Positions 35,160-56,229 of a DNA stretch of 64,000 bases are shown piece after piece; within the stretch, counting starts at the first letter, position 1, and the number at the start of each line of letters is the position of its first letter. Under the pieces are notes generated by a model. The model had not been told where the DNA came from, ran no database searches, and worked only from the letters and a program-made list of their open reading frames with translations. The DNA is from Nitrospirota bacterium. GTDB taxonomy: Bacteria > Nitrospirota > Thermodesulfovibrionia > Thermodesulfovibrionales > Dissulfurispiraceae. Made by a program: the position numbers and the translations under genes. Location: assembly GCA_963710375.1 (NCBI GenBank), contig CAVPZX010000001.1:76210-140209 (forward strand), written 5' to 3'.

Positions 35160-36127
35160 TGCATCTCCTTTTTGATGTTAAAAATTTTTTTCGGTGCGGT
35201 GAAATCCTTGTACCCGACCGGCAATTTATGTAATTCTTTTATAAGATTACGCACACTGGGGGAGACTAACGCTGCAAGTTCACGTCAACCGGCAGGTGTT
35301 GCAGTATCCGGGTGAGTGAATATTTCACTTATCTCTGTACCGGCAAGCTCCAGAATATCAAGGAAAAACTGCTCATCAATGTTTCCGCTGCTTGAAAGAC
35401 CGCAAACACGGTCCGCACTTAACATCCCGTATTTACGGGCTGTCCCGGAGTTGTATTTTCCGAGCATACCGAAGACCGCCCATTCGACAAAAGGCAGGGA
35501 CCCGCGCGACGGAGAGCGGAATGTCTTAACCATTGAAAGCGGCTCATTGGGGAGCCTGACCCAGCAAATGTCTCTCCGGAATGCCTGACGGCAAAGCACT
35601 TCGAAAATAACCGGGTGCATATGAAGATGATGATGGCCGTCCACATGGTGAGGGCGGATACCGGCCCTCTCAAGGCGCTCGAACTGAGCCGCCACTTCAG
35701 CCTCGATCTGTGCGAGGAGGCCTGGTCTCGTATAGTGCAGCCCGGCACGAAAAGGATCTTTTATGAAGTTGCCGTCATGATCTGTAATATCCGGTATAGA
35801 CGCATGGGGCAACACAGCTTTGCCGTCGCAAAGTGTTAAGTGCAGCCCTATTGAGAGCCGGCTGCGGTCAAGAGCGGTCTGCACCGCGTCATCAAAAGCC
35901 TCTCCCCCTGCCATAATGCTTGCGGCAGTAAGTATCCCCTTATCATGGGCTTCGGCGATAGCCCGGTTGACTGACGCCGATTTGCCCATATCGTCGGCAA
36001 CAATAACCACACAGCCTTTACCCTTGAAATTCAAATCGGAACGTGTCTCCTGACGGGCCTGGTATCGGGAACCGGCTGCGCCGTCAAACCCGCCATAAGA
36101 AGGGGGGTTCAGTAATAGGGTACGCAT
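35156..36127 (-). pseudogene. hpnK: hpnJ N-terminal remnant fused in frame to hpnK (YdjC-family deacetylase), with a premature TGA
   Basis: The first ~30 aa (MRTLLLNPPSYGGFDGAAGSRYQARQETRS) match the HpnJ N-terminus, followed by ADDMG, GLHL, DGHHHLH, THP. In-frame TGA at 35285-35287, then RELAALVSPSVR... to a stop at 35156-35158. Confidence 0.85.
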
Positions 36128-36259
36128 TTTTCTCCTCTTGTTTGAGAGCATCTTTACAAAAAAAGTTAGATGGAAATTTTTTAATAAGTGCAATATATCC
36201 TAATGACTTAAGACTAATAATTTATTATAGTATACTGTTTTTTTGCAAGTTTAAGAAGC

Positions 36260-43603: not shown

Positions 43604-43632
43604 TTGACATGTACGTTAAGGTTAGTTATAAT
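43604..43632 (+). promoter_or_regulatory. Consensus sigma70 promoter overlapped by an imperfect palindrome
   Basis: TTGACA-N17-TATAAT; TTGACATGTACGTTAA dyad over the -35 box. Confidence 0.8.
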
Positions 43633-43706
43633 TTTATCTGGAAGTTGATTTTCCTCTGATTCGGGTTTTTTTAAATGAAAACATAGACAAAGTTAAGGAG
43701 TATCAT

Positions 43707-44870
43707 ATGGAAGACAAGATCCCTCGCTCGAAAGATGACTACACCACGGAGGCTATACATGCCCGCCAGGACTTTATCAAGGAAAAAACTGGCGTTGCCG
43801 TGAATCATGTCGGCCGTCATTCGTTTGATCCGTCTATGCTCAAGGGCAACATTGAAAGTTTCATCGGCGTGGCCCAGGTGCCGATCGGAATTGCCGGGCC
43901 TTTGCTGGTGAACGGTGAACATGCCAAGGGAGAATATTATGTGCCCATGGCAACCACCGAAGGCACCCTGGTGGCCAGCTATAACAGGGGCATGAAGCTC
44001 GTTCATTCCTGTGGAGGAGTAATGACCACTATAGTGGATGAGGCCATGCAGCGCGCCCCGGTATTTGTTTTCGACAACGCCAGAGAGGCCAGAAATTTTT
44101 GCATATGGCAGCACGATCATTACGCCGAGATCAAGGAGGTGGCCGATAAAACCTCATCTGTCGGCAGGCTTAAGAATATCGAACATTATGCGGCGGGAAA
44201 GCTTTTATTCCTGCGCTTCAATTATACCACCGGCGACGCCGCGGGCCAAAACATGGTGGGCAAGGCCACCTTTGCCGCCTGCGAATGGTTGAAGGTCAAT
44301 TACCCGGCCATCCGGCACTACAATCTCTCCGGCAATATAGATACGGACAAGAAGAGTTCCTTCATCAACAGCCTGCACACGCGCGGCAAGCGAGTCATCG
44401 CCGAGGCGGTCATTCCCGGCGATCTTGTTATGAATATCGCCAAAGTTCAGTCAGGCGATCTCCTAAGGCAGCGCAATATCAGCAATATCGGCACCATACT
44501 GGCCGGATCGAGCAATAACGGCATGCACTCTGCCAACGGGATCACGGCGATATTTATCGCCACCGGTCAGGATGCGGCTAATGTGGCCGAGTCATCGACG
44601 GCGCTGGTCTTTGCCGATCAGCTCCCCGACAACAGTTATTACTTTTCTATTACCATCCCATCCTTGATCGTGGGCACATATGGAGGGGGCACAGCTCTGG
44701 CTACACAACGCGAATGTCTGGAAATCATGGACTGCTACGGCACCGGCAAAGTTGGCAAACTGGCCGAGATTGTGGCGGCCACGGTACTTTGCGGCGAGCT
44801 TTCATTAGCAAGCGCCATTATGGCGAAGGAGTGGGTATCAAGTCATGAGAAGATGGGCCGAAACCGCTAG
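43707..44870 (+). CDS. Class I-type HMG-CoA reductase family protein
   Basis: GNIESFIG, PMATTEGTLVASYNRG, TGDAAGQNMV, DKK, GQDAANV, GTYGGGT, GELSL, catalytic His near the C-terminus. Confidence 0.9.
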   Translation: MEDKIPRSKDDYTTEAIHARQDFIKEKTGVAVNHVGRHSFDPSMLKGNIESFIGVAQVPIGIAGPLLVNGEHAKGEYYVPMATTEGTLVASYNRGMKLVHSCGGVMTTIVDEAMQRAPVFVFDNAREARNFCIWQHDHYAEIKEVADKTSSVGRLKNIEHYAAGKLLFLRFNYTTGDAAGQNMVGKATFAACEWLKVNYPAIRHYNLSGNIDTDKKSSFINSLHTRGKRVIAEAVIPGDLVMNIAKVQSGDLLRQRNISNIGTILAGSSNNGMHSANGITAIFIATGQDAANVAESSTALVFADQLPDNSYYFSITIPSLIVGTYGGGTALATQRECLEIMDCYGTGKVGKLAEIVAATVLCGELSLASAIMAKEWVSSHEKMGRNR

Positions 44871-44907
44871 TTCCAATTTGCGATCATAAACAAAAGGGTA
44901 TCGAAGA

Positions 44908-45678
44908 ATGGACATGCAATATCTTTTACTCGCAATACAAGACAAGGTCGCCACAGTCACCATTAACCGCCCCGATAAAGGCAATTCTCTCTCCCCAGAG
45001 GTGCTCGAGGAAATCGAGACCATGTTTACCGCGCTTTCCAGGCGTGAGGATATAAATGTCGTGGTCTTTACAGGAGGCGAAAAATACTTTTCAGCAGGAT
45101 TCGATCTGAATCGCATTCGCCAGCTTCAAAAGGGCTCCAACGAGGCATATATCACAATGTTCCATCGAACCTTCCGCTCGATCATGTTCTGCGAACAGCC
45201 GGTCATCTGCGCGGTCGGCGGCCCGGCCATCGCCGGCGGGTTCGACCTTACAATGATGTGCGACATACGCTATGCCTCTGAAAGGGCCAAGTTCGGCCAG
45301 CGCGAGGTTGAGCTGTCGCTCACCCCAACCATGGACCCTTTATGGCGCATCATCGGTTTGGGCAACGCCAAGGAGGTGGCCCTGACCGGAAGGATCTACG
45401 ACGCCCAGGAGGCCCTGCGCATGGGCTATGTTTCCAGGGTGTTCCCAGACGACAAACTCCTGGAAGAAGTAGGAGCCATAGCCCGCAAAATGGCCACTTA
45501 TGACCGGGGCTGCATGAAGGAAACCAAGCAACTTACCCATAACCTGCTGAACTCCGGCCTGGATCAATCCATGCGGCTGCAGGAATGGCTTTTCAGGAGC
45601 TATATCGGCTCTGATGACAATCATGAACGCATCGATGCCCTCCAGGCCAAACTGGCTCAGATGAGGAAGAACAAATAA
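44908..45678 (+). CDS. Enoyl-CoA hydratase/isomerase (crotonase) family
   Basis: INRPDKGN, FSAGFDL, AIAGGFDL, AKFGQRE, TGRIYDAQEA. Confidence 0.9.
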   Translation: MDMQYLLLAIQDKVATVTINRPDKGNSLSPEVLEEIETMFTALSRREDINVVVFTGGEKYFSAGFDLNRIRQLQKGSNEAYITMFHRTFRSIMFCEQPVICAVGGPAIAGGFDLTMMCDIRYASERAKFGQREVELSLTPTMDPLWRIIGLGNAKEVALTGRIYDAQEALRMGYVSRVFPDDKLLEEVGAIARKMATYDRGCMKETKQLTHNLLNSGLDQSMRLQEWLFRSYIGSDDNHERIDALQAKLAQMRKNK

Positions 45679-45699
45679 CCCTAAGAAAAGGAGATTATC

Positions 45700-47154
45700 A
45701 TGGGTAAACTCATGAACGCCAAGGAATATGAGGAAAGTTTGCGTAAGCTCAACCTCAAGGTCTACCTGTTCGGCAAGCGTATTACAAATGTCGTGGATGA
45801 TCCCATCATCCGACCGTCCATGAACGCAGTTGCAGCCACGTACGAATTCGCCCACAAACCGGAATACGAAGACATAATGACTGCGAAATCGCACCTTACC
45901 GGCAAGAAGATCAACCGTTTCACTCATATCCACCAGAGCGTGGATGACTTGGTGAAAAAGAGCAAGATGGGCCGTCTCTTGGGATCGCTTACGGCCTGCT
46001 GTTTTCAGCGCTGCGTAGGCATGGACGCCATGAACGCGCTTTCCATTACCACGCATGCCATTGACGCCAAACACGGCACGGACTACAACCAGCGGTTCTT
46101 GAAATTCCTCGCTTACGTGCAGGAAAACGACCTGGTCTGCGATGGCGCCATGACCGACCCCAAAGGCGACCGCGGCCTGCCGCCCCACAAACAGGCAGAC
46201 CCCGACATGTTTCTGCATGTCGTGAAGGAGCGGGCCGACGGCATCGTGGTCAGGGGTTCCAAGGCTCACCAGACCGGTGCGGTCAACTCGCATGAGATCA
46301 TAGTCATGCCCACTATGAGCATGCGCGAGGAAGATAAGGATTACGCCGTCGCCTTTGCAGTGCCCAGTGACACCGAGGGCATTACCTATATTCTGGGACG
46401 TCAATCCTGCGATACCCGCAAGCTCGAAGGCACGACCTTTGACCGCGGCAATATGTATTATGGCGGGCACGAGGCCCTGGTGGTTTTCGATCATGTCTTC
46501 GTCCCCTGGGAGCGTGTCTTTATGTACAAGGAGTATGACTTCTCCACCCAGCTCGTGGAAAGCTTTGGCGCCTATCACCGCCAGAGCTATGCCTGCAAGG
46601 TTGGCGTGGGTGATGTGCTCATCGGCGCGGCCCAGACCGTGGCCGAATATAACGGGGCGGAAAAAGCATCTCATATCAAAGATAAGATCGTGGAGATGAA
46701 CCACCTCAACGAGACCCTCTTCTGCGGCTGCATCGCCTGCGCGGCCGAAGGACACCGGGAAGCGAGCGGCACCTACCTCGTCGATGTGCTATTAGCCAAT
46801 GTGCACAAGCAGAACGTCACGCGCTTTCCCTATGAGATCGCCCGGCTGGCCCAGGATATCGCCGGAGGTTTGATGGTCACCCTGCCGTCCGAAGCGGATT
46901 TTAAGTCCCCCGAAATAGGCAAGTGGATCGAAAAATACTACAAGACCAAAGAGGGTGTCTGTACCGAGGACCGCATGCGTATCCTGAGGCTTATTGAAAA
47001 CATCACCATGGGTACGGCGGCCGTGGGCTATCTGACCGAGAGCATGCATGGAGCAGGTTCACCTCAGGCTCAACGCATTATGATCGGCCGGTTGATCGAC
47101 ATGAAACAAAAACAAAAGGCCGCCAAATTTCTCTGCGGCATCGATAAGGAGTAA
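45700..47154 (+). CDS. abfD: 4-hydroxybutyryl-CoA dehydratase
   Basis: CFQRCVGMD, GAMTDPKGDR, G.KAHQTG, YHRQSYACK (Fe-S ligands), ESMHGAGSPQAQRI. Confidence 0.9.
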   Translation: MGKLMNAKEYEESLRKLNLKVYLFGKRITNVVDDPIIRPSMNAVAATYEFAHKPEYEDIMTAKSHLTGKKINRFTHIHQSVDDLVKKSKMGRLLGSLTACCFQRCVGMDAMNALSITTHAIDAKHGTDYNQRFLKFLAYVQENDLVCDGAMTDPKGDRGLPPHKQADPDMFLHVVKERADGIVVRGSKAHQTGAVNSHEIIVMPTMSMREEDKDYAVAFAVPSDTEGITYILGRQSCDTRKLEGTTFDRGNMYYGGHEALVVFDHVFVPWERVFMYKEYDFSTQLVESFGAYHRQSYACKVGVGDVLIGAAQTVAEYNGAEKASHIKDKIVEMNHLNETLFCGCIACAAEGHREASGTYLVDVLLANVHKQNVTRFPYEIARLAQDIAGGLMVTLPSEADFKSPEIGKWIEKYYKTKEGVCTEDRMRILRLIENITMGTAAVGYLTESMHGAGSPQAQRIMIGRLIDMKQKQKAAKFLCGIDKE

Positions 47155-47237: not shown

Positions 47238-47498
47238 TCATTTCATTCTTAATGGGAATCTTTCCGGGTGCTCAATTATCTCAACGGTAAGATCAATATC
47301 TAAATCCGGCCAGTAAAAATGCCCTTTATTCGGCTCTTCCACGTTTAAAATTTTCCCGACCGGGGCATCTTTGAACCACGGGAAATCTCCGTAGGACATA
47401 AACAACTCCTGGCCCCCAGCCAGAAGCCATACACCATTGGCGGAGATATTTGTAACTTCAACTGTCTCGATGTTCTTTCCAAGCGTTTTTGAACTCAT
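47238..47498 (-). CDS. DUF2442 family protein (putative TA component)
   Basis: FPWFKDA, YWPDLDIDL, PERFPL. Confidence 0.85.
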   Translation of the reverse strand: MSSKTLGKNIETVEVTNISANGVWLLAGGQELFMSYGDFPWFKDAPVGKILNVEEPNKGHFYWPDLDIDLTVEIIEHPERFPLRMK

Positions 47499-47697
47499 CG
47501 TAGTGCTCCTCAATAATATTTTCAACTTCCTTTAATTGGGCGCGTGATAGATTATAATTTCTTGCTATCTCTATCTCCGGCTCTAACCAAAACTTTGTTT
47601 CGCCATCAGCACATATAACATGAACGTGCATTCTCGTTTCCTCGCGGGAGAAGAAAAAGAAACGGTATCCCTTTTCTTTCAGAATCGTCGGGCTCAT
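47458..47697 (-). CDS. DUF4160 family protein (putative TA component)
   Basis: MSPTI...GYRFFFFSRE..RMHVHV...KFWL. Confidence 0.88.
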   Translation of the reverse strand: MSPTILKEKGYRFFFFSREETRMHVHVICADGETKFWLEPEIEIARNYNLSRAQLKEVENIIEEHYDEFKNAWKEHRDS

Positions 47698-47903
47698 ACA
47701 GTATTTGTTTATATTTTATAGCATAAAAAGTGTTTTGTGCATATTGTACACCTGTGAGCATTATAGCTCGATTTGGGTGAACATAGTCAATTAGCCTACT
47801 TGTGCTTGTCAACACACAGTGAATTATATAGCAAAAGTCCCGTAGTTGCGATTACAACATGGAATCGGTAAACTAATAGCTATCCGATATGGAGGTGTAA
47901 ATT

Positions 47904-48134
47904 ATGAATGCAGTAAAAGCTATTTACCATGACGGAATAATCGAACTGATTGAAAAGCCCTTAGTAGAAGGGACCGCAGAAGTTCTTGTCATATTCCCGG
48001 AGAAACAAAAAAAGGTTGTGAAAATCGGAGGACTTTTTAAAGGCCAGTCTATTGATTATGAAGGCATTGAAAACGATCTGAAACAACTTAACCATGCTTC
48101 GCAAAAACATTTATTGGACGAGGCCAACAATTAG
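47904..48134 (+). CDS. Putative antitoxin (AF2212/DUF104-like N-terminus)
   Basis: MNAVKAIYHDGIIELIE; lies directly upstream of a PIN-like gene start. Confidence 0.6.
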   Translation: MNAVKAIYHDGIIELIEKPLVEGTAEVLVIFPEKQKKVVKIGGLFKGQSIDYEGIENDLKQLNHASQKHLLDEANN

Positions 48135-48136
48135 GC

Positions 48137-48177
48137 ATGAACAAATATGTGATTGACACCCACAATTTAGTCACAGT
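48137..48177 (+). pseudogene. Truncated VapC/PIN toxin 5' remnant
   Basis: ATG AAC AAA TAT GTG ATT GAC ACC CAC (MNKYVIDTH, typical PIN start), broken at the 17-bp repeat 48161-48177. Confidence 0.6.
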
Positions 48178-48222
48178 GATTTTCCCTCTCGAATAGACCA
48201 GATTTCTGAAAAGCTTCCCGTA

Positions 48223-48603
48223 TCACTTATGTCCTAGGCGTTTAAAAACAATTTCCTGCTTTATGTAGTCCAGCACGGCTATGAAATTCATTTCTTCGGA
48301 ACTGGAAACGCCCCTTGATAGGTGTCTGTGGTGCGGGAAGTTTTCGAGGTTTTTATAATGCGGAGCAGTATCCCAGCGGACTATTAGTTTGTTCGAGGCA
48401 TCCATCCGGTGGAATCTGTAATCGTGTTCGTATGTTGACAATAGCTCTCTGAAATCCAGCGCAGAACCGTCTATGAAGGCTATCCTGCCTCTCAGCATGC
48501 CCATGTCGGCGGAGACCATTTCAAAGGTTGAAGTGTCGGCTTGAATAAGGGGAGAAATTTCTTTGAGCTTGTTGCGGACCTTGTTGAAGTAAGACTGTAT
48601 CAT
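48223..48603 (-). CDS. DUF6516 / TumE-like toxin
   Basis: F.DGS.L...E, Y.FH, RWDTAPHY...NFPHHRH. Confidence 0.8.
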   Translation of the reverse strand: MIQSYFNKVRNKLKEISPLIQADTSTFEMVSADMGMLRGRIAFIDGSALDFRELLSTYEHDYRFHRMDASNKLIVRWDTAPHYKNLENFPHHRHLSRGVSSSEEMNFIAVLDYIKQEIVFKRLGHK

Positions 48604-48875
48604 CAGACTATTGCAGCTATTTTATGCAACCTGTCTTTGACATGCTCACAAGCTTTAGATGCAAAGAGCCAATCAAACCATTCTCCGTCGTCTCCCAATA
48701 TGCCAGAGTTAAATTTCTTCAAGAACGCTTTGGTGGTCATCTTGTGTTTTTTTTCAAAGTCCTTCAGTTTCTTCCTGTATTCCAGAAGGCTGAGCTTCAT
48801 GATATTCCTGTCAAGCTCAAGACCCTCCTTCACAATCAATGCGTCGTCTTTGTCCATCTTTAATGTTGTCGCCAT
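48603..48875 (-). CDS. Cognate antitoxin (TumA-like)
   Basis: L..FEKKH.MTT..F..KF..G.LGD..EWFDW; TGATG overlap with the toxin gene. Confidence 0.75.
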   Translation of the reverse strand: MATTLKMDKDDALIVKEGLELDRNIMKLSLLEYRKKLKDFEKKHKMTTKAFLKKFNSGILGDDGEWFDWLFASKACEHVKDRLHKIAAIV

Positions 48876-49035
48876 AGTGAAACCTCCTCAGCTATTTTAG
48901 CATAACGGTGCTGTTTAGGAATTAAATCTAAGTACAACTGACACTGTTATTAGGGTAGAGGTCTCTCACATAAATGCAGTCGAAGAAACAGAGAAATCAA
49001 ACAAAAATGCAGTTGGCTGAAATTTAGGAAAAATC

Positions 49036-49080
49036 TGGTGCCCCCTAGAGGGATCGAACCTCTGGCCCCAGGTTTAGGAA
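49036..49080 (-). other. att site: 3' fragment of tRNA-Arg(CCT)
   Basis: Reverse complement TTCCTAAACCTGGGGCCAGAGGTTCGATCCCTCTAGGGGGCACCA contains the anticodon loop, T-arm, acceptor strand and CCA; the 5' half is absent. Confidence 0.88.
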
Positions 49081-49526
49081 GTCAAAACAATAGAAAAGGC
49101 CTCTACCTTGAAAACAAAGGCTTTAATGCCAAGTCAATGATTTTAAAGGCATTAAAGCCTTTCTGTATTTTCTGTCCTTTCCCTTATTTTCGGGCTATTC
49201 AGCAGAATTCTGTCACAATTTAGTCACAGTAAAAATGTTTAAAGCACAGTTGCTAATACATAATGAAAACGGTAGACTAAAAACAAAGCGATATTGAATG
49301 AGGATGTGCTGCGATTGACCCCTTTAAAACAGGGAGCGATTATGACTATCTCAAAATGACCGGACACTGCAAATATTAGTGATATAATGGAGCTTTATTT
49401 AGTTGATAAGGTGAAAAAAGGCGGGGAGGAGATAGACCGCAGTGAATCTGCCTCTGTTGACGACTTAAAAAGAGAAAGGCGGTCGTGGTAAAGTGGTCAA
49501 AATATTCCGGCATAGGGGATGAAGCG

Positions 49527-50477
49527 ATGGATGAAACTAGAACTTTAAAAGGTATATATCGCACTGGAACGCAACACACTTCCACAAACTGGGATCAATT
49601 ATGTGCCGATCATGAGGCAGAGTTTCCTTTAATTTATAAATGTGCTTTGGGAACTTTTAACGTCCTTATGACAGATTTGCCTGAATATATACCGCCCGGA
49701 GATGCAGAATGTCGCAAGAGAGCTATAAAACGAGGAGAATCCGTTAAGCGGTATGAACATGGAAATCACATTGCACCGCGCGCAAAAGTTATAAAAATTA
49801 ATGAAAAGTATGTGGAAGCATGGATTTACAGGGGCGGAAACCCTGTACCTAATACTTTGGAATTAATTTCATTCCATAAATTAGCGGAATATCTAAATGT
49901 GCAAAACGACGATAAGCTTACAGTTGTTATTGAGGAAGTTGACGAAGGAACGATCGGTATGCCAGAGGCACCCCCGGACAAACCCGGAAAGACAATAACA
50001 ACAAACTTTGATATAAGCATAATTGATACGCATGAGCAGCTGGATATAAACTCATGCATTCCATCTGCAGTGGAGATGATTTTAAAACTCCTGAAAGAAG
50101 TCCCAGCAGATTATTATGACTTACAAAAGGCATGGGAACCTGCACCTGGCGATAATTTTTCTAAATACGATGGCATAGTAATAGAGAATGTGAAATTTGA
50201 ACTTAAATTTAATCTAAGTAATCATCCCCGAGGCACTAGTTTCCCTTTGGATCGTCTTTTTAATACTATTGATGACGAGCTTCAGGCAGGCAGGTTTGTC
50301 GCCATTTCTTTAGAGGTAAAAGGAGGATGGCATAATTATATTATTTACAAGAAGAATGCTGATGGCGAATACTCAGCATGTACGAAATGCTACAGAGATA
50401 CTTGCTTCACTCACAATGTAAAGGCAAGGGTAGAAGCAATGGGCGGTACTGATATCTTGGTTTACACAGAATTATAA
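49527..50477 (+). CDS. Fusion of a CTP-dependent riboflavin kinase-like (DUF120) domain and a C39/papain-like peptidase domain
   Basis: LKG...TG, GTFNV, TLELISFHKLAEYLNVQNDDKLTV; Pro-rich linker; Q...SCIPSAVEMIL and GWHNYII. Confidence 0.6.
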   Translation: MDETRTLKGIYRTGTQHTSTNWDQLCADHEAEFPLIYKCALGTFNVLMTDLPEYIPPGDAECRKRAIKRGESVKRYEHGNHIAPRAKVIKINEKYVEAWIYRGGNPVPNTLELISFHKLAEYLNVQNDDKLTVVIEEVDEGTIGMPEAPPDKPGKTITTNFDISIIDTHEQLDINSCIPSAVEMILKLLKEVPADYYDLQKAWEPAPGDNFSKYDGIVIENVKFELKFNLSNHPRGTSFPLDRLFNTIDDELQAGRFVAISLEVKGGWHNYIIYKKNADGEYSACTKCYRDTCFTHNVKARVEAMGGTDILVYTEL

Positions 50478-50721
50478 GCATAGGCTTAAGCGGACGGTTC
50501 TATTTATTTGCAAGTGCACATATTGTAGAAGGAAAATTAATAAAATTGAACCGTTGTCCCCTTTATGCAGTTTTTAACATGAGAAAAGTGTAAAATATTT
50601 TACCGGGGCAGCAGGAGGCATTGGTCACTTCTTAGCGGCCTTATTTGTTTGTATGCCCTTTAATGGGTGACCCCACCATACCGAGTAGATCGTGATAATA
50701 CGTCGTTAAACGAGAGACACC

Positions 50722-51948
50722 ATGACAAATCGAAACGCACTCGAATGCAATGAATGTGGAACAAGAACTATTACAAGAACCGCCATTGGGCACGGAGATT
50801 ATCAGGAATTTGCCTTTCCTTGCCCAGGATGCGGCATTGAGATCAGATTTGGAATGAACCTGTATCCTCGTGAAGCCAATTGGGAATATGTCAAATTAAT
50901 TAACGCGAAGTGGGTTGACTCCGAAGAGGGTATCACAAATGAAATCAAACTAGATGGGGAGAGTCTTATTCCCGTTCATGACAGGGATTTCATAATGCCC
51001 TTCTTGAAGACAGTTTTTCTGGCTAAAGACGCAAATACATTTATGAGGCATCAGAGCCTCCGCCTCATGGCTACAAGCAACATTTGGCCGACTATTGAGA
51101 AGATTCTTCATTACCATGAAGATAGTAACCATGACCTTCTTGTGAAGTCTTTGAAGGAAACTGGTTACGAAGCTAGCCTTGATACTGAACGGGATTTTGC
51201 AGCCGCACTAATATGGATTTTTGACAAATATGGGGTATTCTTCCGGATGAGACATAATAGCGATGAACAGACCGTAAGGCAACGAATCAATCTTGCGGAA
51301 TCTATCGCAAGTAAAGGCGTAATGGACTTCTACATGTTGCTGAAGTCTTCCGGCAGACTCGATCAGTTGTTCCGGGAAGCGAATGCCATCAGGAAGACCT
51401 GGGCAAAGCTCTATTCCTTCCTTTTCCCTATTTTCAATATCTACTATTGGGACAGCACAAACCATAACCTAACCGACTACACCATGTGCCAGAAACGATT
51501 CCACGAAATAAAACACTTTTATGTGGACTGTTTCGAGACGTTCTGCCGATTTTCCAATCTTGCCGCTACCTTAGAAGGATTTATCTTTCTTGGGAGAATG
51601 GCCGTACCAAAAAAGACCGGTTCGATGACATTTGAAGAGTACGAGGCATTACCTAACGGATCAAAGCCTGACATACTTAAGAATTTTCCGGCGATCTCCG
51701 GGATATTTATTCCCTACATGGATTCAAAGCTTCGTAACGGTGTTGGTCATCATTCAGCTCGGTATATCGTCAAGTCCGATACGATTAAATACGTGAATCA
51801 CGGCAAGAAAGGGACTCAAGAATTTTCCATGCCTTACATCGTGTTCTGTGAAAAATTAGTACAGCTTTATGTGCAACTTGAAATAGTGTTTTTGTATTGG
51901 GCAGGTGCCTATGGTAGAAATCACGGGATTGTGGACAGAATCGTCTAA
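50722..51948 (+). CDS. Hypothetical protein with N-terminal Zn ribbon and C-terminal HEPN-like RxxxxH motif
   Basis: CNEC..CPGC; LRNGVGH. Confidence 0.65.
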   Translation: MTNRNALECNECGTRTITRTAIGHGDYQEFAFPCPGCGIEIRFGMNLYPREANWEYVKLINAKWVDSEEGITNEIKLDGESLIPVHDRDFIMPFLKTVFLAKDANTFMRHQSLRLMATSNIWPTIEKILHYHEDSNHDLLVKSLKETGYEASLDTERDFAAALIWIFDKYGVFFRMRHNSDEQTVRQRINLAESIASKGVMDFYMLLKSSGRLDQLFREANAIRKTWAKLYSFLFPIFNIYYWDSTNHNLTDYTMCQKRFHEIKHFYVDCFETFCRFSNLAATLEGFIFLGRMAVPKKTGSMTFEEYEALPNGSKPDILKNFPAISGIFIPYMDSKLRNGVGHHSARYIVKSDTIKYVNHGKKGTQEFSMPYIVFCEKLVQLYVQLEIVFLYWAGAYGRNHGIVDRIV

Positions 51949-52017
51949 CGAGCCGTTCCACCTGATCGCCCATATTACAAAGATGCGGCAGAATCAATTT
52001 CTACTGCAGCTGATGGA

Positions 52018-52920
52018 TTATTTTAAAAAGGTTAGCTGATCTTCACGTGGTATATGTTTGTGAACTTCAATGATTTCATAAGATTTATTTACAAAAGTAT
52101 TAGAGACCTTATCAAAGACACGATTAATACGCAAGTCAACTTCAAGCACATCTCCATTCGCAAATCTTTCTCCTGATAAGCTTTTGTTGATAAAATCGGT
52201 ATCCTTAATTCTTGCAGCAATCTTATTCCCTTTGTAGAAGAATTCCCATTTGTGATTACTATCAAATACGACTTTAAATATATTCAGAGAGGCTTTCTCA
52301 ACTGTTGGTGGCTTTGAATCCTCAATCTCAACAACATCAATAGGCATTATATCCTGATTTTGTCTTGAGGTGAGATTTTTAAACTCATTCCGTGGTACTG
52401 ACATTAAAGGTTTGTTTTCTTTTGACCATAACTCAATCTCATCTATTGAGCGATCTTCATCTAATCTTTCAAACTGCCTTTCAACGGCGTGATTAACTTT
52501 TTCGTTGTTTTTATAAATATTGATTGTTCTGTTATCGACTATAGTTATGTTCCCATTATTCTCCTTAATCTCTATTCCCGCATCTATTTCTTGTCTCTCT
52601 TCTGGAGAGCTACTCTTAAAGTTTAGTTTTAATTTTATCAATTCAATGTAAATTTTAATTATGTCAGGGATGCTAAACGCATGTTCGGCTAAAACTCCTG
52701 CTAACGTAACTTCTACTAAATCAAACGGAATGTCAAAGCTGCCTGCTTCAAAAGGCTTGATTTTTATTTCAATTCCCTTGCCTGTGTGCAATTCTTTGTT
52801 TACTTCTTCTATTATTTCAGTGAAACTTGATAAGGATGCGATAAGGGTCTTAGAATCAACTTCATTTTCTTTGCAACCAAAATGAAATAAATAACTCTCA
52901 GAGTTTTGGAGCTCTTCCAT
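52018..52920 (-). CDS. Hypothetical protein (AT-rich island gene)
   Basis: 300-aa ORF with GAGGAG RBS; GSF motif; beta-rich C-terminus. Confidence 0.7.
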   Translation of the reverse strand: MEELQNSESYLFHFGCKENEVDSKTLIASLSSFTEIIEEVNKELHTGKGIEIKIKPFEAGSFDIPFDLVEVTLAGVLAEHAFSIPDIIKIYIELIKLKLNFKSSSPEERQEIDAGIEIKENNGNITIVDNRTINIYKNNEKVNHAVERQFERLDEDRSIDEIELWSKENKPLMSVPRNEFKNLTSRQNQDIMPIDVVEIEDSKPPTVEKASLNIFKVVFDSNHKWEFFYKGNKIAARIKDTDFINKSLSGERFANGDVLEVDLRINRVFDKVSNTFVNKSYEIIEVHKHIPREDQLTFLK

Positions 52921-53121
52921 TTCTCCTCACATAAACTACTTGATAAATATAACATAAACACAAGATAAAATTGAGATATTTATAAGGATTGCATGAGATA
53001 CGTACAATTCAGTTCCACTTTTAGCGGGTAAAAAAATGAAACGAAAGCTCTCAACCCTATTTATCCAACGAGTTATCGGGATGTATTGTGATCTTCAAAT
53101 CCATTATACTATTGCTCAATA

Positions 53122-56100
53122 ATGCTGAAGGAATACCTGAAGAAGATAGCGGATACAAACAACCGAGGGGATGCACGGGAAGAAAGCTATTACCCGGTCC
53201 TTGCCGATCTCTTTAGCGAGTATTGCGATTCAGTAGGCAAGAAAAAGATTCACGTCACTGTCCTTCCAAAAAAGACAGAGGCTGGGAACCCCGATTTCAG
53301 GATATGGGACGGAAAACAGCATATCACTGGATACATTGAAGCAAAAGACCCCTCTGTTGAAAATCTTGACAGAATAGAAGATACAGAGCAGCTAAAAAGA
53401 TACCTGCATACCTTCCCTAATCTGATACTTACCAATTTCCTTGAGTTCAGGCTTTACCGCAACGGGGTAATGACGGATAAAGTGTTAATCGCCAGGCCCT
53501 ATTGGTTAAGCAAAGTAAAGACCACTCCACCCGTTGAAAAAGAGTCTGAATTTTTAGAGCTAATGGAAAAGTTTTTTTCCTTCTCGATACCTAAAGTTTA
53601 TGATGCAAAGACCCTTGCAATAGAGCTTGCCAAAAGGACACGGTTTTTAAAAGATGAAGTTATAGCACAGGAGTTAAGGGAAGAGGAAACGGCAGGGAAG
53701 GGCTTTATCGGAGGATTCTATGAGGCATTCAAGGAATACCTGATTAGCAGTCTTACAGAGAATGAATTTTCAGACCTGTATTCACAGACAATCACTTATG
53801 GACTGTTTGCGGCCCGTACCCGTTCAGAGAATGGTTTTAACAGAAAACTTGCCTATGACAATATCCCGCAGACAATCGGCATTCTGAGAGACGTATTTCA
53901 GTTTGTTTCTTTAGGCTCCCTCCCTCAACAGATGGAATGGATTATTGATGATATTTCCGAAATCCTGTCAGTCGCGGATATTAAAAAAATTCTTCATCAA
54001 TACTTCCATGAGGGTAAAGGCAAAGACCCTATCATACATTTCTATGAGACATTCCTTGCAGAGTATGACCCAAAAACAAGGACGATGAGGGGCGTATATT
54101 ACACGCCTGAACCTGTGGTTTCCTATATTGTCCGTTCATTGCACATCATCCTGCAAGAGCAGTTTAATAAACCTGATGGATTTGCAGATAAGAATGTGAC
54201 GGTATTAGACCCGGCAGCAGGAACGCTTACCTTTTTAGCAGAGACGGCAAAACTTGCCGTTGATGAGTTTGTTTCTAAGTACGGAGAGGGAGGCAGAAAA
54301 AACTTTATCAAAGATCATATTCTGAAAAACTTCTATGCTTTTGAATTAATGATGGCCCCTTATGCTATAGGGCATTTAAAAATGTCCTTCCTGCTTGAAG
54401 AATTAGGATTCAGGTTACAGGAGGATGACAGGGTAAAGCTTTATTTGACTAATACCCTTGAGATGGAAGAGCTACATGAAACAAAACTCCCTGGAATGGC
54501 TTCCCTGTCTGAAGAATCACACCTGGCAGGAAAGGTTAAGAAAGAACAGCCGATATTGGTAATTTTAGGAAACCCTCCTTATTCTAAGAGTTCTGCAAAC
54601 AAGTCTGATTTTATAGAACATGAAATGAATGCATATAAAGAAGATGTCCGAACTGAAAGAAATATACAACCTCTTTCAGATGATTACATCAAGTTTATCC
54701 GGTTTGCACATTGGAAGATTGACCGTGACGGGAAAGGTATTATCGGGCTGATAACCAATAATTCATACCTTTCAGGAATTATTCACAGGGGAATGAGAAA
54801 GAAATTGCTTGATAGCTTTAATGAGATATATATTTTGAACCTTCACGGGAACAGCCGAATTGGTGAAAAAGCACCTGATGGAAGTAAGGATGAGAATGTA
54901 TTTGATATTCAGCAAGGCGTTGCCATTGCTTTACTCATAAAGAGTAACAAACATAAACAAAATGGAGTGGGTAAAGTTTTATATCAGGATATTTATGGTT
55001 TGAGGGAATTTAAATATAACTTTTTAGGCATCAATGACATACAAAAGACAGAATGGAAAGAATTAAATCCGAGTGAACCTTATTACTTTTTTGTTGAAAA
55101 GGATTTTTCATTACAAACAAGCTATGACAAATTCTTTTTCATTCTTGATATTTTTGATAAATATTCAAGTGGAGTAAAAACTAACCGTGACCATTTTTTA
55201 ACCGATTTCGATTTGAAAGCTTTGGAAAGACGAATTCAAACAATGAGAGATAATCAGTTAGATGATGAATTGTTCAGAAAAGCCTACAACCTGAAAGACG
55301 GGGACTATTGGAATACTACCCGTGAAAGAGAAAAAGTTCGGAATAATGATAACTGGAGAAATCAATTTTTCAGATTGTCATACAGACCTTTTGATATACG
55401 ATGGATATATTATCAACCTAATTTGATTGAAATAGGCCGAGGTGGTGCAAGCAAAGAATTAATGCGTCATTTTTTCAGTGATAACTTAGGATTTATTATT
55501 GACCGTACTACCTCTAATAATATCCTTTTTTCCCATATTTTTATTTCAGACACCTTGATGGATGTTAGAGCACTTCCTGATTATGGTGGTGCTCCATTTC
55601 TTGTTCCCCTCTATCTTCACTCTTCAAAAGAAAAGAAAGGCTTGTTTCATGCAGAGGGAGAGACAAAAGAGTCGAACATAAAACCTGAAATATTCAAAAC
55701 CTTATCGAAAACATACAAGAAAGATGTATCCTCCGAAGAAATATTCTATTGCATTTATGCTGTACTTTATTCAGAGACCTACAGGACAAAATATGCAGAG
55801 TTTCTGAAGATAGATTTTCCGAGAGTGCCGTTTACCAAGGACTATAAGCTGTTCCAGAAAATGTCTGAATACGGATACAGACTTGTTAACCTTCATCTGC
55901 TAAAATCACAGGAGCTTGATCCACCGATAGCACGGTTTCAGGGCAATGGAGATAACAGGGTAGAGAAACCGAAGTATGAGGAGAAGGGGGAGCTTGTCTA
56001 TATCAACAAAGCTCAATACTTTGAGGGAATTTCGGAAGAAATATGGCGCTATCAGATCGGTGGGTATCAGGTATGCGATAAATGGCTGAAGGACAGAAAA

Positions 56101-56229
56101 GATCGGATTCTATCCCTTGATGAGATACAGACCTATTGCCGGATCGTTACAGCAATTCAAAAAACCATAGATATACAGACTGCGATTGATGAGGTTTATG
56201 AAGAAATAGAAAAAACGGTCATTACATAA
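53122..56229 (+). CDS. Single-polypeptide restriction-modification enzyme (Type IIG / Type ISP-like without helicase)
   Basis: PDF...YIEAK (PD-D/ExK), GVYYTP, LDPAAGT (motif I), GNPPY (motif IV), YRPFD and Y.IGGYQV..KWLKDR (LlaBIII-like C-terminus). Confidence 0.88.
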   Translation: MLKEYLKKIADTNNRGDAREESYYPVLADLFSEYCDSVGKKKIHVTVLPKKTEAGNPDFRIWDGKQHITGYIEAKDPSVENLDRIEDTEQLKRYLHTFPNLILTNFLEFRLYRNGVMTDKVLIARPYWLSKVKTTPPVEKESEFLELMEKFFSFSIPKVYDAKTLAIELAKRTRFLKDEVIAQELREEETAGKGFIGGFYEAFKEYLISSLTENEFSDLYSQTITYGLFAARTRSENGFNRKLAYDNIPQTIGILRDVFQFVSLGSLPQQMEWIIDDISEILSVADIKKILHQYFHEGKGKDPIIHFYETFLAEYDPKTRTMRGVYYTPEPVVSYIVRSLHIILQEQFNKPDGFADKNVTVLDPAAGTLTFLAETAKLAVDEFVSKYGEGGRKNFIKDHILKNFYAFELMMAPYAIGHLKMSFLLEELGFRLQEDDRVKLYLTNTLEMEELHETKLPGMASLSEESHLAGKVKKEQPILVILGNPPYSKSSANKSDFIEHEMNAYKEDVRTERNIQPLSDDYIKFIRFAHWKIDRDGKGIIGLITNNSYLSGIIHRGMRKKLLDSFNEIYILNLHGNSRIGEKAPDGSKDENVFDIQQGVAIALLIKSNKHKQNGVGKVLYQDIYGLREFKYNFLGINDIQKTEWKELNPSEPYYFFVEKDFSLQTSYDKFFFILDIFDKYSSGVKTNRDHFLTDFDLKALERRIQTMRDNQLDDELFRKAYNLKDGDYWNTTREREKVRNNDNWRNQFFRLSYRPFDIRWIYYQPNLIEIGRGGASKELMRHFFSDNLGFIIDRTTSNNILFSHIFISDTLMDVRALPDYGGAPFLVPLYLHSSKEKKGLFHAEGETKESNIKPEIFKTLSKTYKKDVSSEEIFYCIYAVLYSETYRTKYAEFLKIDFPRVPFTKDYKLFQKMSEYGYRLVNLHLLKSQELDPPIARFQGNGDNRVEKPKYEEKGELVYINKAQYFEGISEEIWRYQIGGYQVCDKWLKDRKDRILSLDEIQTYCRIVTAIQKTIDIQTAIDEVYEEIEKTVIT

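Follow-up and report, generated by a model that had tools for sequence, protein, structure and literature searches.

An FcrA-clade reductase gene paired with an AbfD-family dehydratase gene in a Nitrospirota operon with a possible role in alcohol breakdown

The FcrA family consists of fatty acyl-CoA reductases derived from class I HMG-CoA reductase (HMGR) (Grossi et al., ISME J 2025, PMC11948995; all statements about this article refer to its accessible text). The enzyme of 'Candidatus Promineifilum breve' (Pb-FcrA) converts long acyl-CoAs (C14 to C18) to alcohols in an NADPH-dependent reaction, does not reduce HMG-CoA, and is inactive below C14 in vitro (PMC11948995). In many cases, fcrA occurs in the absence of a wax-ester synthase and has to act in other pathways, for which only ether lipids have been suggested (PMC11948995). 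Here, we describe an operon that encodes an FcrA-clade reductase, a crotonase-superfamily protein, and a dehydratase of the 4-hydroxybutyryl-CoA dehydratase (AbfD) family in a Nitrospirota bacterium (GenBank assembly GCA_963710375.1, contig CAVPZX010000001.1, positions 76,210 to 140,209; this whole stretch of 64,000 nucleotides is referred to as the window). The reductase family is already published, and its pairing with AbfD is the new part. This pairing is absent from the main text of PMC11948995, whose supplement may cover sequences that lack the N-terminal Lad domain, as the reductase described here does, and a literature search with most subscription papers outside its reach found nothing on it. 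FcrA beside AbfD in several unrelated bacteria likely marks an undescribed role in breakdown, and the operon provides one specific, testable answer to the question of how fcrA is used outside wax esters, namely, in partnership with AbfD in beta-oxidation clusters.

HMGR-type chemistry is reversible. In the MvaA/MvaB system of Pseudomonas mevalonii, an HMGR-type enzyme is run oxidatively and takes an alcohol directly to an acyl-CoA; MvaA is a class II, NAD+-linked, HMG-specific enzyme that is paired with a lyase. The reading that we favor for the operon, tentatively and with slightly less than even confidence, is that FcrA, too, works in the oxidative direction: it would convert an alcohol or diol to a hydroxyacyl-CoA, which would then enter beta-oxidation by way of AbfD and the crotonase. 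The three genes are as follows.

43707-44870, + strand: FcrA-clade reductase gene (product P0001, 387 amino acids; PF00368 [HMG-CoA_red] is the only Pfam match)
44908-45678, + strand: crotonase-superfamily gene (product P0002, 256 amino acids; PF00378 [ECH_1])
45700-47154, + strand: AbfD-family dehydratase gene (product P0003, 484 amino acids; HpaB_N/HpaB, HpaB/AbfD fold)

P0001 almost certainly belongs to the FcrA clade and is not an HMG-CoA enzyme, and it is predicted to be an acyl-CoA/alcohol oxidoreductase. The AlphaFold model (pLDDT 81) confirms the class I HMGR fold and only that, with Foldseek TM scores of 0.78 to 0.80 to class I HMGR structures (0.80 to 6hr7). P0001 falls under the cut-off of TIGR00533 (356 versus 441.8 bits) and reaches just 46.8 bits on TIGR00532. 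The catalytic residues E85, K215, D289, and H380, which correspond to HMGR Glu559, Lys691, Asp767, and His866, are retained in 279, 279, 279, and 277 of 279 aligned relatives, respectively. The position of Leu862 is occupied by W376, and tryptophan is found there in 278/279 relatives and leucine or phenylalanine in four outgroup proteins. The carboxylate-binding lysine, presumably Lys735 in human numbering, is gone: P0001 has S259, and none of the 279 relatives has a lysine. In the loop that lost this lysine, an acid is present at position 208 or 212 in 278/279 relatives, never at both, and P0001 combines S208 with D212; serine at 208, the equivalent of position 684, is retained in 153/279 clade members, so an acid there is not universal. 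In the FcrA of N. pharaonis, Ser684 is replaced by an acid, Glu360 (PMC11948995). Residues E236, E360, K367, G411, D441, W528, and H532 of that protein align with E85, S208, K215, S259, D289, W376, and H380 of P0001, and the numbering offset is constant at 152 from position 208 to position 380. Grossi et al. print the lysine as Lys795 and tie its loss, together with the tryptophan that all FcrA have at the Leu862 position, to the exclusion of HMG; they also describe an elongated pocket (PMC11948995). S259 and W376 are the corresponding diagnostic residues of P0001. The P0001 subfamily is not discussed in the accessible text of PMC13001223.

The preliminary description of this locus had drawn attention to a DAAGQN motif in place of DAMGMN. 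The motif is present (residues 177 to 182; A179 in 274/279 relatives and Q181 in 278/279), but it is not special to P0001 and instead marks a very large subfamily, to which 7982 of 8000 scored candidates match at E<=1e-100. P0001 lacks the N-terminal beta-rich Lad domain (PF25653), which was found on 2/2 extended homologues scanned, and thus lies outside the Lad-bearing FcrA subgroup, the type of the assayed Pb-FcrA. In a quick IQ-TREE analysis of 51 selected rows, with four long-branch outgroups and with Pb-FcrA and N. pharaonis FcrA left out, 47 rows including Lad-bearing homologues fell on one side (SH-aLRT 91). Arg256 of P0001, shared by 261/279 relatives, lies one helical turn from the lost lysine in the alignment. 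It was considered as a mark of AbfD-linked FcrA and rejected, as it also occurs in copies linked to WS/DGAT (wax-ester synthase). Several more distant or unusual reductase genes were also seen. Class I-like HMGRs from Vibrio and Brevibacillus (L166 and L168) lack the Lys735 equivalent and have Asp/Glu at the Ser684 position and phenylalanine at the tryptophan position. A Sinorhizobium plasmid (L167:1037-10733) carries a very divergent HMGR-like gene, with no DKK in the alignment, between acyl-CoA carboxylase subunits, near an indolepyruvate oxidoreductase and an MmgE/PrpD gene. Two genomes from the phylum of G062 (G661 and G569, loci L212 and L213) have Lad-bearing FcrA (PF25653 checked on L212), with no AbfD or WS/DGAT match within the 15 kb examined. 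The FcrA gene of G380 is split over two frames (L219:6442-7607), and this genome also has AbfD.

The preliminary description had proposed that the reductase interconverts succinyl-CoA, or a substituted analogue, and 4-hydroxybutyrate, or that the operon degrades a mevalonate-like hydroxy acid. Neither proposal fared well: succinyl-CoA, HMG-like dicarboxylyl-CoAs, and mevalonate are unlikely substrates because they need the site for the distal carboxylate, whose lysine is lost. The preliminary description was right to set the reductase apart from the mevalonate pathway. The host genome (3.19 Mb, 98.8% complete) yielded no such pathway: there was no match to PF01154 (HMG-CoA synthase) and none in blastp searches with Streptomyces MVK, PMK, MVD, IDI2, and HMGS. 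The single GHMP kinase is IspE, and DXR and IspG are present. Among the other FcrA genomes, PF01154 was matched in 2/50 with a cut-off of E<=1e-6 that detected just 3/14 controls. A breakdown route through HMG-CoA, for mevalonate or a branched hydroxy acid like it, would fit the class I HMGR fold and a host without genes for mevalonate synthesis, as for a scavenger. We consider it very improbable, since Trp376 and the lost lysine are the HMG-exclusion features of PMC11948995, AbfD has no step in such a route, and no HMG-CoA lyase was present among the three of five host PF00682 matches that were classified (the other two are frames of 518 and 546 amino acids).

Somewhat less improbable is a route in which one enzyme converts succinyl-CoA to 4-hydroxybutyrate, in place of SucD and 4HbD, and a CoA transferase encoded elsewhere reactivates the product for AbfD. 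P0001 retains Ser208, Arg116, and Lys216, and Arg256 could supply a new positive charge. A CoA transferase gene lies between FcrA and AbfD in L124, methylmalonyl-CoA mutase is found near the FcrA-AbfD pair in L045, L049, and L186, and the host carries both a mutase and a gene of the acetyl-CoA hydrolase/transferase family. However, the Lys735 equivalent is lost in all 279 relatives, an acid is added at 208 or 212 in 278, and tryptophan replaces Leu862; Pb-FcrA rejects both the dicarboxylyl HMG-CoA and chains below C14 (PMC11948995); and Arg256 is shared with WS/DGAT-linked copies. The transferase occurs in just 1/13 linked loci, several of which are on short contigs, and the related cluster from which the operon may derive (see below) has a long-chain ligase, an acyl-CoA dehydrogenase (ACAD), and a patatin gene but no GABA or succinate genes.

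The second partner is well defined. Judged by its matches and residues, P0003 is an AbfD-like [4Fe-4S]/FAD 4-hydroxyacyl-CoA dehydratase and not a monooxygenase: its best match in the Protein Data Bank (PDB) is the AbfD structure 1u8v (687 bits, E 7e-206), followed by 6vjr (626 bits), with the best HpaB monooxygenase at 146 bits. For C. aminobutyricum AbfD, we use what we take to be its residue numbering. P0003 retains C101, C105, C299, H293, Y297, E258, E447, and R92; of these, C101, C105, C299, H293, Y297, and E447 align with 1u8v and 6vjr (three cysteine and one histidine ligands, catalytic tyrosine and glutamate). The AbfD residues E449, Y299, and H295 are named in the accessible part of a preprint (bioRxiv 10.1101/2020.02.05.935528). 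The clade of P0003 has KSKMG instead of KVKMQ before a conserved arginine. A canonical AbfD (68%) coexists with a P0003-type copy in 3/3 Syntrophia genomes checked, and the KSKMG clade is therefore a separate paralog, which may take 4-hydroxyacyl-CoAs longer than C4. Other AbfD arrangements were also encountered. One AbfD clade (QNKMQ, about 55 to 58% to P0003) is common to aerobic Bacteroidota and Blastocatellia and often stands alone (L189 to L197, L199, L217, and L218). Three Syntrophia-class loci (L258 to L260) hold three to four AbfD paralogs (68%, 57%, and 35%) with a P0002-type crotonase, TetR, SDR, an Old-Yellow/BaiCD-like flavoenzyme, and an alpha/beta hydrolase; these clusters may serve to break down hydroxy or epoxy fatty acids. 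Three further genomes have 5 to 6 AbfD-like matches each.

P0002 is a member of the crotonase superfamily, with all 25 NCBIfam matches listed below the cut-off. We considered it as a classic two-glutamate enoyl-CoA hydratase and rejected this assignment, since Asp113 occupies the position of the first catalytic glutamate of these enzymes (Crt/EchA8). D113, E133, and D143 are invariant in 121/121 members of the subfamily, which was found in 49/251 genomes of the class of G062, taken as Syntrophia from homologue names. An Asp/Glu/Asp triad is the pattern of Delta3,5-Delta2,4-dienoyl-CoA isomerase. The three acids of P0002 resemble this triad, yet ordinary hydratases outrank 2vre and 8sk6 in PDB searches. 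In 9/30 loci examined, of 52 places, an AbfD of at least 55% adjoins a P0002-type crotonase, and this crotonase mostly accompanies AbfD without FcrA.

The contexts in which close relatives of these genes occur point to an anaerobic beta-oxidation cluster. The earlier suggestion that an acyl-CoA pathway is involved was right. The order ACAD-FadD-patatin-enoyl-CoA hydratase (ECH)-AbfD-thiolase was found in 3/3 Syntrophia-class regions, with crotonase 76 to 77% and AbfD 88 to 89% to those of the window; upstream, two of the three also carry a HAD gene, another crotonase gene, and a distantly related AbfD paralog. No FcrA match was present in 20 kb of each of these regions, to which the search was limited. 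A Leptospiraceae locus (L261) has the order TetR-ECH-thiolase-ACAD-AbfD (79%)-patatin-HAD-FcrA (76%)-ECH, with no ligase match. In L007, L010, and L086, a Syntrophaceae-type FcrA (81 to 86%) precedes the same thiolase family (82 to 85% identity), and G003 has ECH-AbfD-thiolase, where the lack of FcrA is uninformative because the contig ends inside the crotonase. From these contexts, it is likely that the window operon, situated in a variable region, is a shortened and mobile fragment of an anaerobic beta-oxidation cluster. A hydrophobic protein of 167 amino acids with no Pfam match is encoded both in the Syntrophia cluster (L256:17783-18283) and beside the Syntrophaceae-type FcrA-thiolase pair (L086:10644-11147); the two were judged alike by eye at their N termini.

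Because FcrA takes the place of the ligase in the Leptospiraceae cluster, and given the reversibility of HMGR-type chemistry, we infer that FcrA could activate alcohols or diols. In such a scheme, FcrA would convert CoA, a primary alcohol or diol, and two NAD(P)+ to a hydroxyacyl-CoA with no ligase or ATP. The beta-oxidation enzymes of the host would then shorten this product until the hydroxyl group is at C4, unless the substrate is already C4. A hydroxyl group on an even-numbered carbon reaches C4 through beta-oxidation, and this is where AbfD is needed. As known for its family, AbfD would eliminate the 4-hydroxyl group in a radical reaction, producing an enoyl-CoA, which the crotonase might hydrate or isomerize before FadB/FadA-type enzymes of the host finish the conversion to acetyl-CoA. 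The host carries ligases, FadB/FadA/FadE-like genes, and thiolases. An oxidative FcrA would keep both FcrA and AbfD near their known reactions and would explain the missing ligase of the operon, for which the preliminary description had assumed a source elsewhere. A second possible alcohol-oxidizing route is seen in the host genome (C2; L204:619-4137), where genes for an aldehyde ferredoxin oxidoreductase, a small protein, and an iron alcohol dehydrogenase lie in a row.

Alternatively, FcrA may work reductively: it would draw off the 4-hydroxybutyryl-, butyryl-, or longer acyl-CoA of the AbfD/crotonase pathway by forming an alcohol or diol, which would provide an electron sink, CoA recycling, or material for ether lipids. 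The catalytic residues are intact, NADPH reduction is the only direction that has been measured, and fcrA has regular uses other than wax-ester synthesis, with ether lipids suggested (PMC11948995). Despite these points, we regard the reductive role as unlikely, if not strongly so: the neighboring genes in L261 make up a set for degradation by beta-oxidation under TetR, Pb-FcrA has no in vitro activity below C14 (PMC11948995), and no WS/DGAT match was found in the host or in three linked genomes, although two positive controls were detected. The lack of WS/DGAT in these four genomes also means that wax-ester synthesis is not the evident job of the reductase.

The pairing of FcrA with AbfD recurs well beyond the window. 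AbfD was present in 9/160 FcrA loci from two collection scans, and targeted retrieval added L180, L185, and L186. The pairing spans four FcrA lineages (anaerobic Nitrospirota/Leptospiraceae, Blastocatellia, Bacteroidota, and one locus among Thermoleophilia-type sequences), and the partner AbfDs fall in two AbfD clades. In the Cytophagales locus L180, the order FcrA-crotonase-AbfD is seen again with a crotonase that is only 26.5% identical to P0002. In view of the two AbfD clades and this nonorthologous crotonase, the pairing probably arose more than once. The preliminary description had called for a test of the trio's conservation across genomes, and the result is mixed: the link between reductase and AbfD recurs in the four lineages, but the trio as a fixed unit was rejected, as the crotonase is absent in G057, is a nonorthologue in L180, and elsewhere occurs mostly without FcrA. 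In the host's own family, FcrA is found in 2/61 genomes and AbfD in 3/61; FcrA-type genes are rare in the phylum of G062 (5/261). G546 carries FcrA and AbfD on separate contigs.

Co-occurrence was also assessed by genome. A true AbfD (at least 53%) is present in 15/50 FcrA genomes, these being 50 of the 80 behind the genome-scan loci. In the Cytophagales (order of G087), AbfD is found in 8/201 genomes, all 8 among the 61 with FcrA: it accompanies 5/6 Lad-less FcrA genomes, 3/55 with the long form only, and 0/140 without FcrA. In the Blastocatellia (class of G082), 7/9 AbfD genomes are among the 38/151 with an FcrA match. Naive p-values, with the center genome left out, are about 2e-4 for Cytophagales and about 3e-3 for Blastocatellia (the script took 61 for 60 and 40 for 41).

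These distributions bear on a further possibility, that P0001 is an ordinary long-chain fatty acyl-CoA reductase whose gene drifts into lipid clusters and variable islands and that it shares no metabolite with AbfD. Genes near FcrA in the 160 loci are mostly assorted lipid genes (ligase in 17, SDR in 12, WS/DGAT in 12, and thiolase in 9), the FcrA-AbfD gap reaches 3.2 kb in some loci, the window copy is in a variable region, the G057 copy lies beside an integrase and an insertion sequence (IS), and FcrA and AbfD do not overlap in Thermoleophilia. However, the FcrA-AbfD adjacency arose with AbfDs of two clades and with two unrelated crotonases, the gaps are only 27 to 165 nucleotides in L005, L053, and L051, the two genes remain together, 27 nucleotides apart, without a crotonase in G057, and no FcrA-less Cytophagales genome has AbfD. 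On balance, we think that such a loose association is unlikely.

Several observations nevertheless weigh against a coupled, oxidative role for FcrA. The case is one of gene context, drawn largely from one Leptospiraceae cluster and the window operon, and the alternation of ligase and FcrA stems from the same two loci. No AbfD is nearby in 151/160 FcrA loci, nor in 76/80 of those flanked by at least 3 kb on each side (AbfD is present in the other 4/80), and 35/50 FcrA genomes have no true AbfD. In Thermoleophilia (class of G067), AbfD is found in 0/9 FcrA genomes, while 41/241 genomes carry an AbfD of at least 54%; the chance of zero overlap is about 0.2. The p-values given above overstate the association because kin are not independent. 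Near-identical FcrA types (R256, E208) adjoin WS/DGAT in Blastocatellia (L220 and L221) and in Thermoleophilia, and therefore no residue separates AbfD-linked from wax-ester-linked enzymes. Finally, the assays of Pb-FcrA covered NADPH-dependent reduction only, and the word "reverse" is absent from the main text of PMC11948995.

If FcrA is oxidative, it would provide ATP-free activation of fatty alcohols and diols, which matters for energy-limited lipid-degrading syntrophs. Such a role would also help account for the AbfD genes of aerobic Bacteroidota and Acidobacteriota, which could be mistaken for a marker of carbon fixation. A bolder version, which we regard as decidedly doubtful, is that a Lad-less FcrA lineage has become a short-chain, reversible 4-hydroxybutyryl-CoA/1,4-butanediol oxidoreductase. 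Together with AbfD and a crotonase, it would make up a natural three-enzyme route that connects 1,4-butanediol with crotonyl-CoA without ATP and that arose at least twice, among anaerobes and among aerobes. Engineered strains build the step between 4-hydroxybutyryl-CoA and 1,4-butanediol from two enzymes; an FcrA that accepts C4 would link the two compounds with one.

The operon itself is compact. As the preliminary description stated, the three genes are co-oriented, closely spaced (gaps of 37 nucleotides between reductase and crotonase and 21 nucleotides between crotonase and AbfD), and GC-richer than most: their GC content of 0.535 to 0.548 lies at the 93rd to 96th percentile of 1303 long open reading frames (ORFs), and their GC at third codon positions (GC3) lies at the 97th to 99th. 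Upstream of the reductase gene are the following elements.

43604-43632, + strand: predicted sigma70-type promoter, TTGACA-N17-TATAAT, 12/12 consensus positions
43594-43602/43627-43635, no strand assigned: 9-nucleotide inverted repeat around the promoter, not conserved in L005
43695-43700, + strand: Shine-Dalgarno-like AAGGAG, read from the sequence, 6 nucleotides 5' of the reductase ATG

The promoter, described earlier as perfect, is the sole 12/12 site among 11 sigma70 sites found with at least 9/12 matches (mean of 4.7 such sites in shuffled sequence). The closest relative locus, L005 (93% match), keeps its -35 element, spacer, and -10 element, and the flanks have diverged. The inverted repeat, previously taken for an operator-like dyad, exists but is not kept in L005, and its role as an operator is thus unsupported. 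The operon lies at the border of a variable stretch of lower GC (47238-56229) that contains DUF2442, small genes, and a large methyltransferase-like ORF; other cargo occupies the matching position in G052 and G057. Elsewhere in the window, an ORF on the - strand (35285-36193) joins about 30 N-terminal residues of hpnJ (hopanoid radical-SAM) in frame with a YdjC/HpnK-like domain. Most of hpnJ looks to have been deleted here, because hpnJ and the HpnK-like gene are two full-length genes in G052 and G057 (the G052 HpnJ scores 698 bits on TIGR03471).

P0003 keeps the cluster ligands and catalytic residues of AbfD from Clostridium aminobutyricum (1u8v) and Nitrosopumilus maritimus (6vjr). Unlike the AbfD of the clostridial route from succinate or GABA to crotonyl-CoA, it belongs to the separate KSKMG paralog clade, and the window operon has no 4-hydroxybutyrate (4HB) dehydrogenase, SucD, or CoA transferase. 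P0001 shares with class I HMGR (6hr7 from Methanothermococcus thermolithotrophicus; human 1dq8/1dq9) the fold, the catalytic Glu/Lys/Asp/His, and the cis-loop DKK. It differs in having DAAGQN for DAMGMN and GTYGGG for GTVGGG, in the loss of Lys735 and the change of Leu862 to tryptophan, in its score below the TIGR00533 cut-off, and in a host without HMG-CoA synthase or mevalonate kinases. From the class II MvaA of P. mevalonii, it is set apart by its 46.8 bits on TIGR00532. Relative to the FcrA enzymes of PMC11948995, P0001 has no Lad domain, has serine at position 684 with an aspartate four residues on, and is encoded in an operon with AbfD and crotonase in a genome with no WS/DGAT match; where P0001 has Arg256, the residue of the Lad clade is small or neutral. 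With Pb-FcrA and the N. pharaonis enzyme, as described in that article, it nonetheless shares the class I HMGR-derived fold, the four catalytic residues, the tryptophan at the Leu862 position, a small residue in place of the carboxylate-binding lysine, and a host without the mevalonate pathway.

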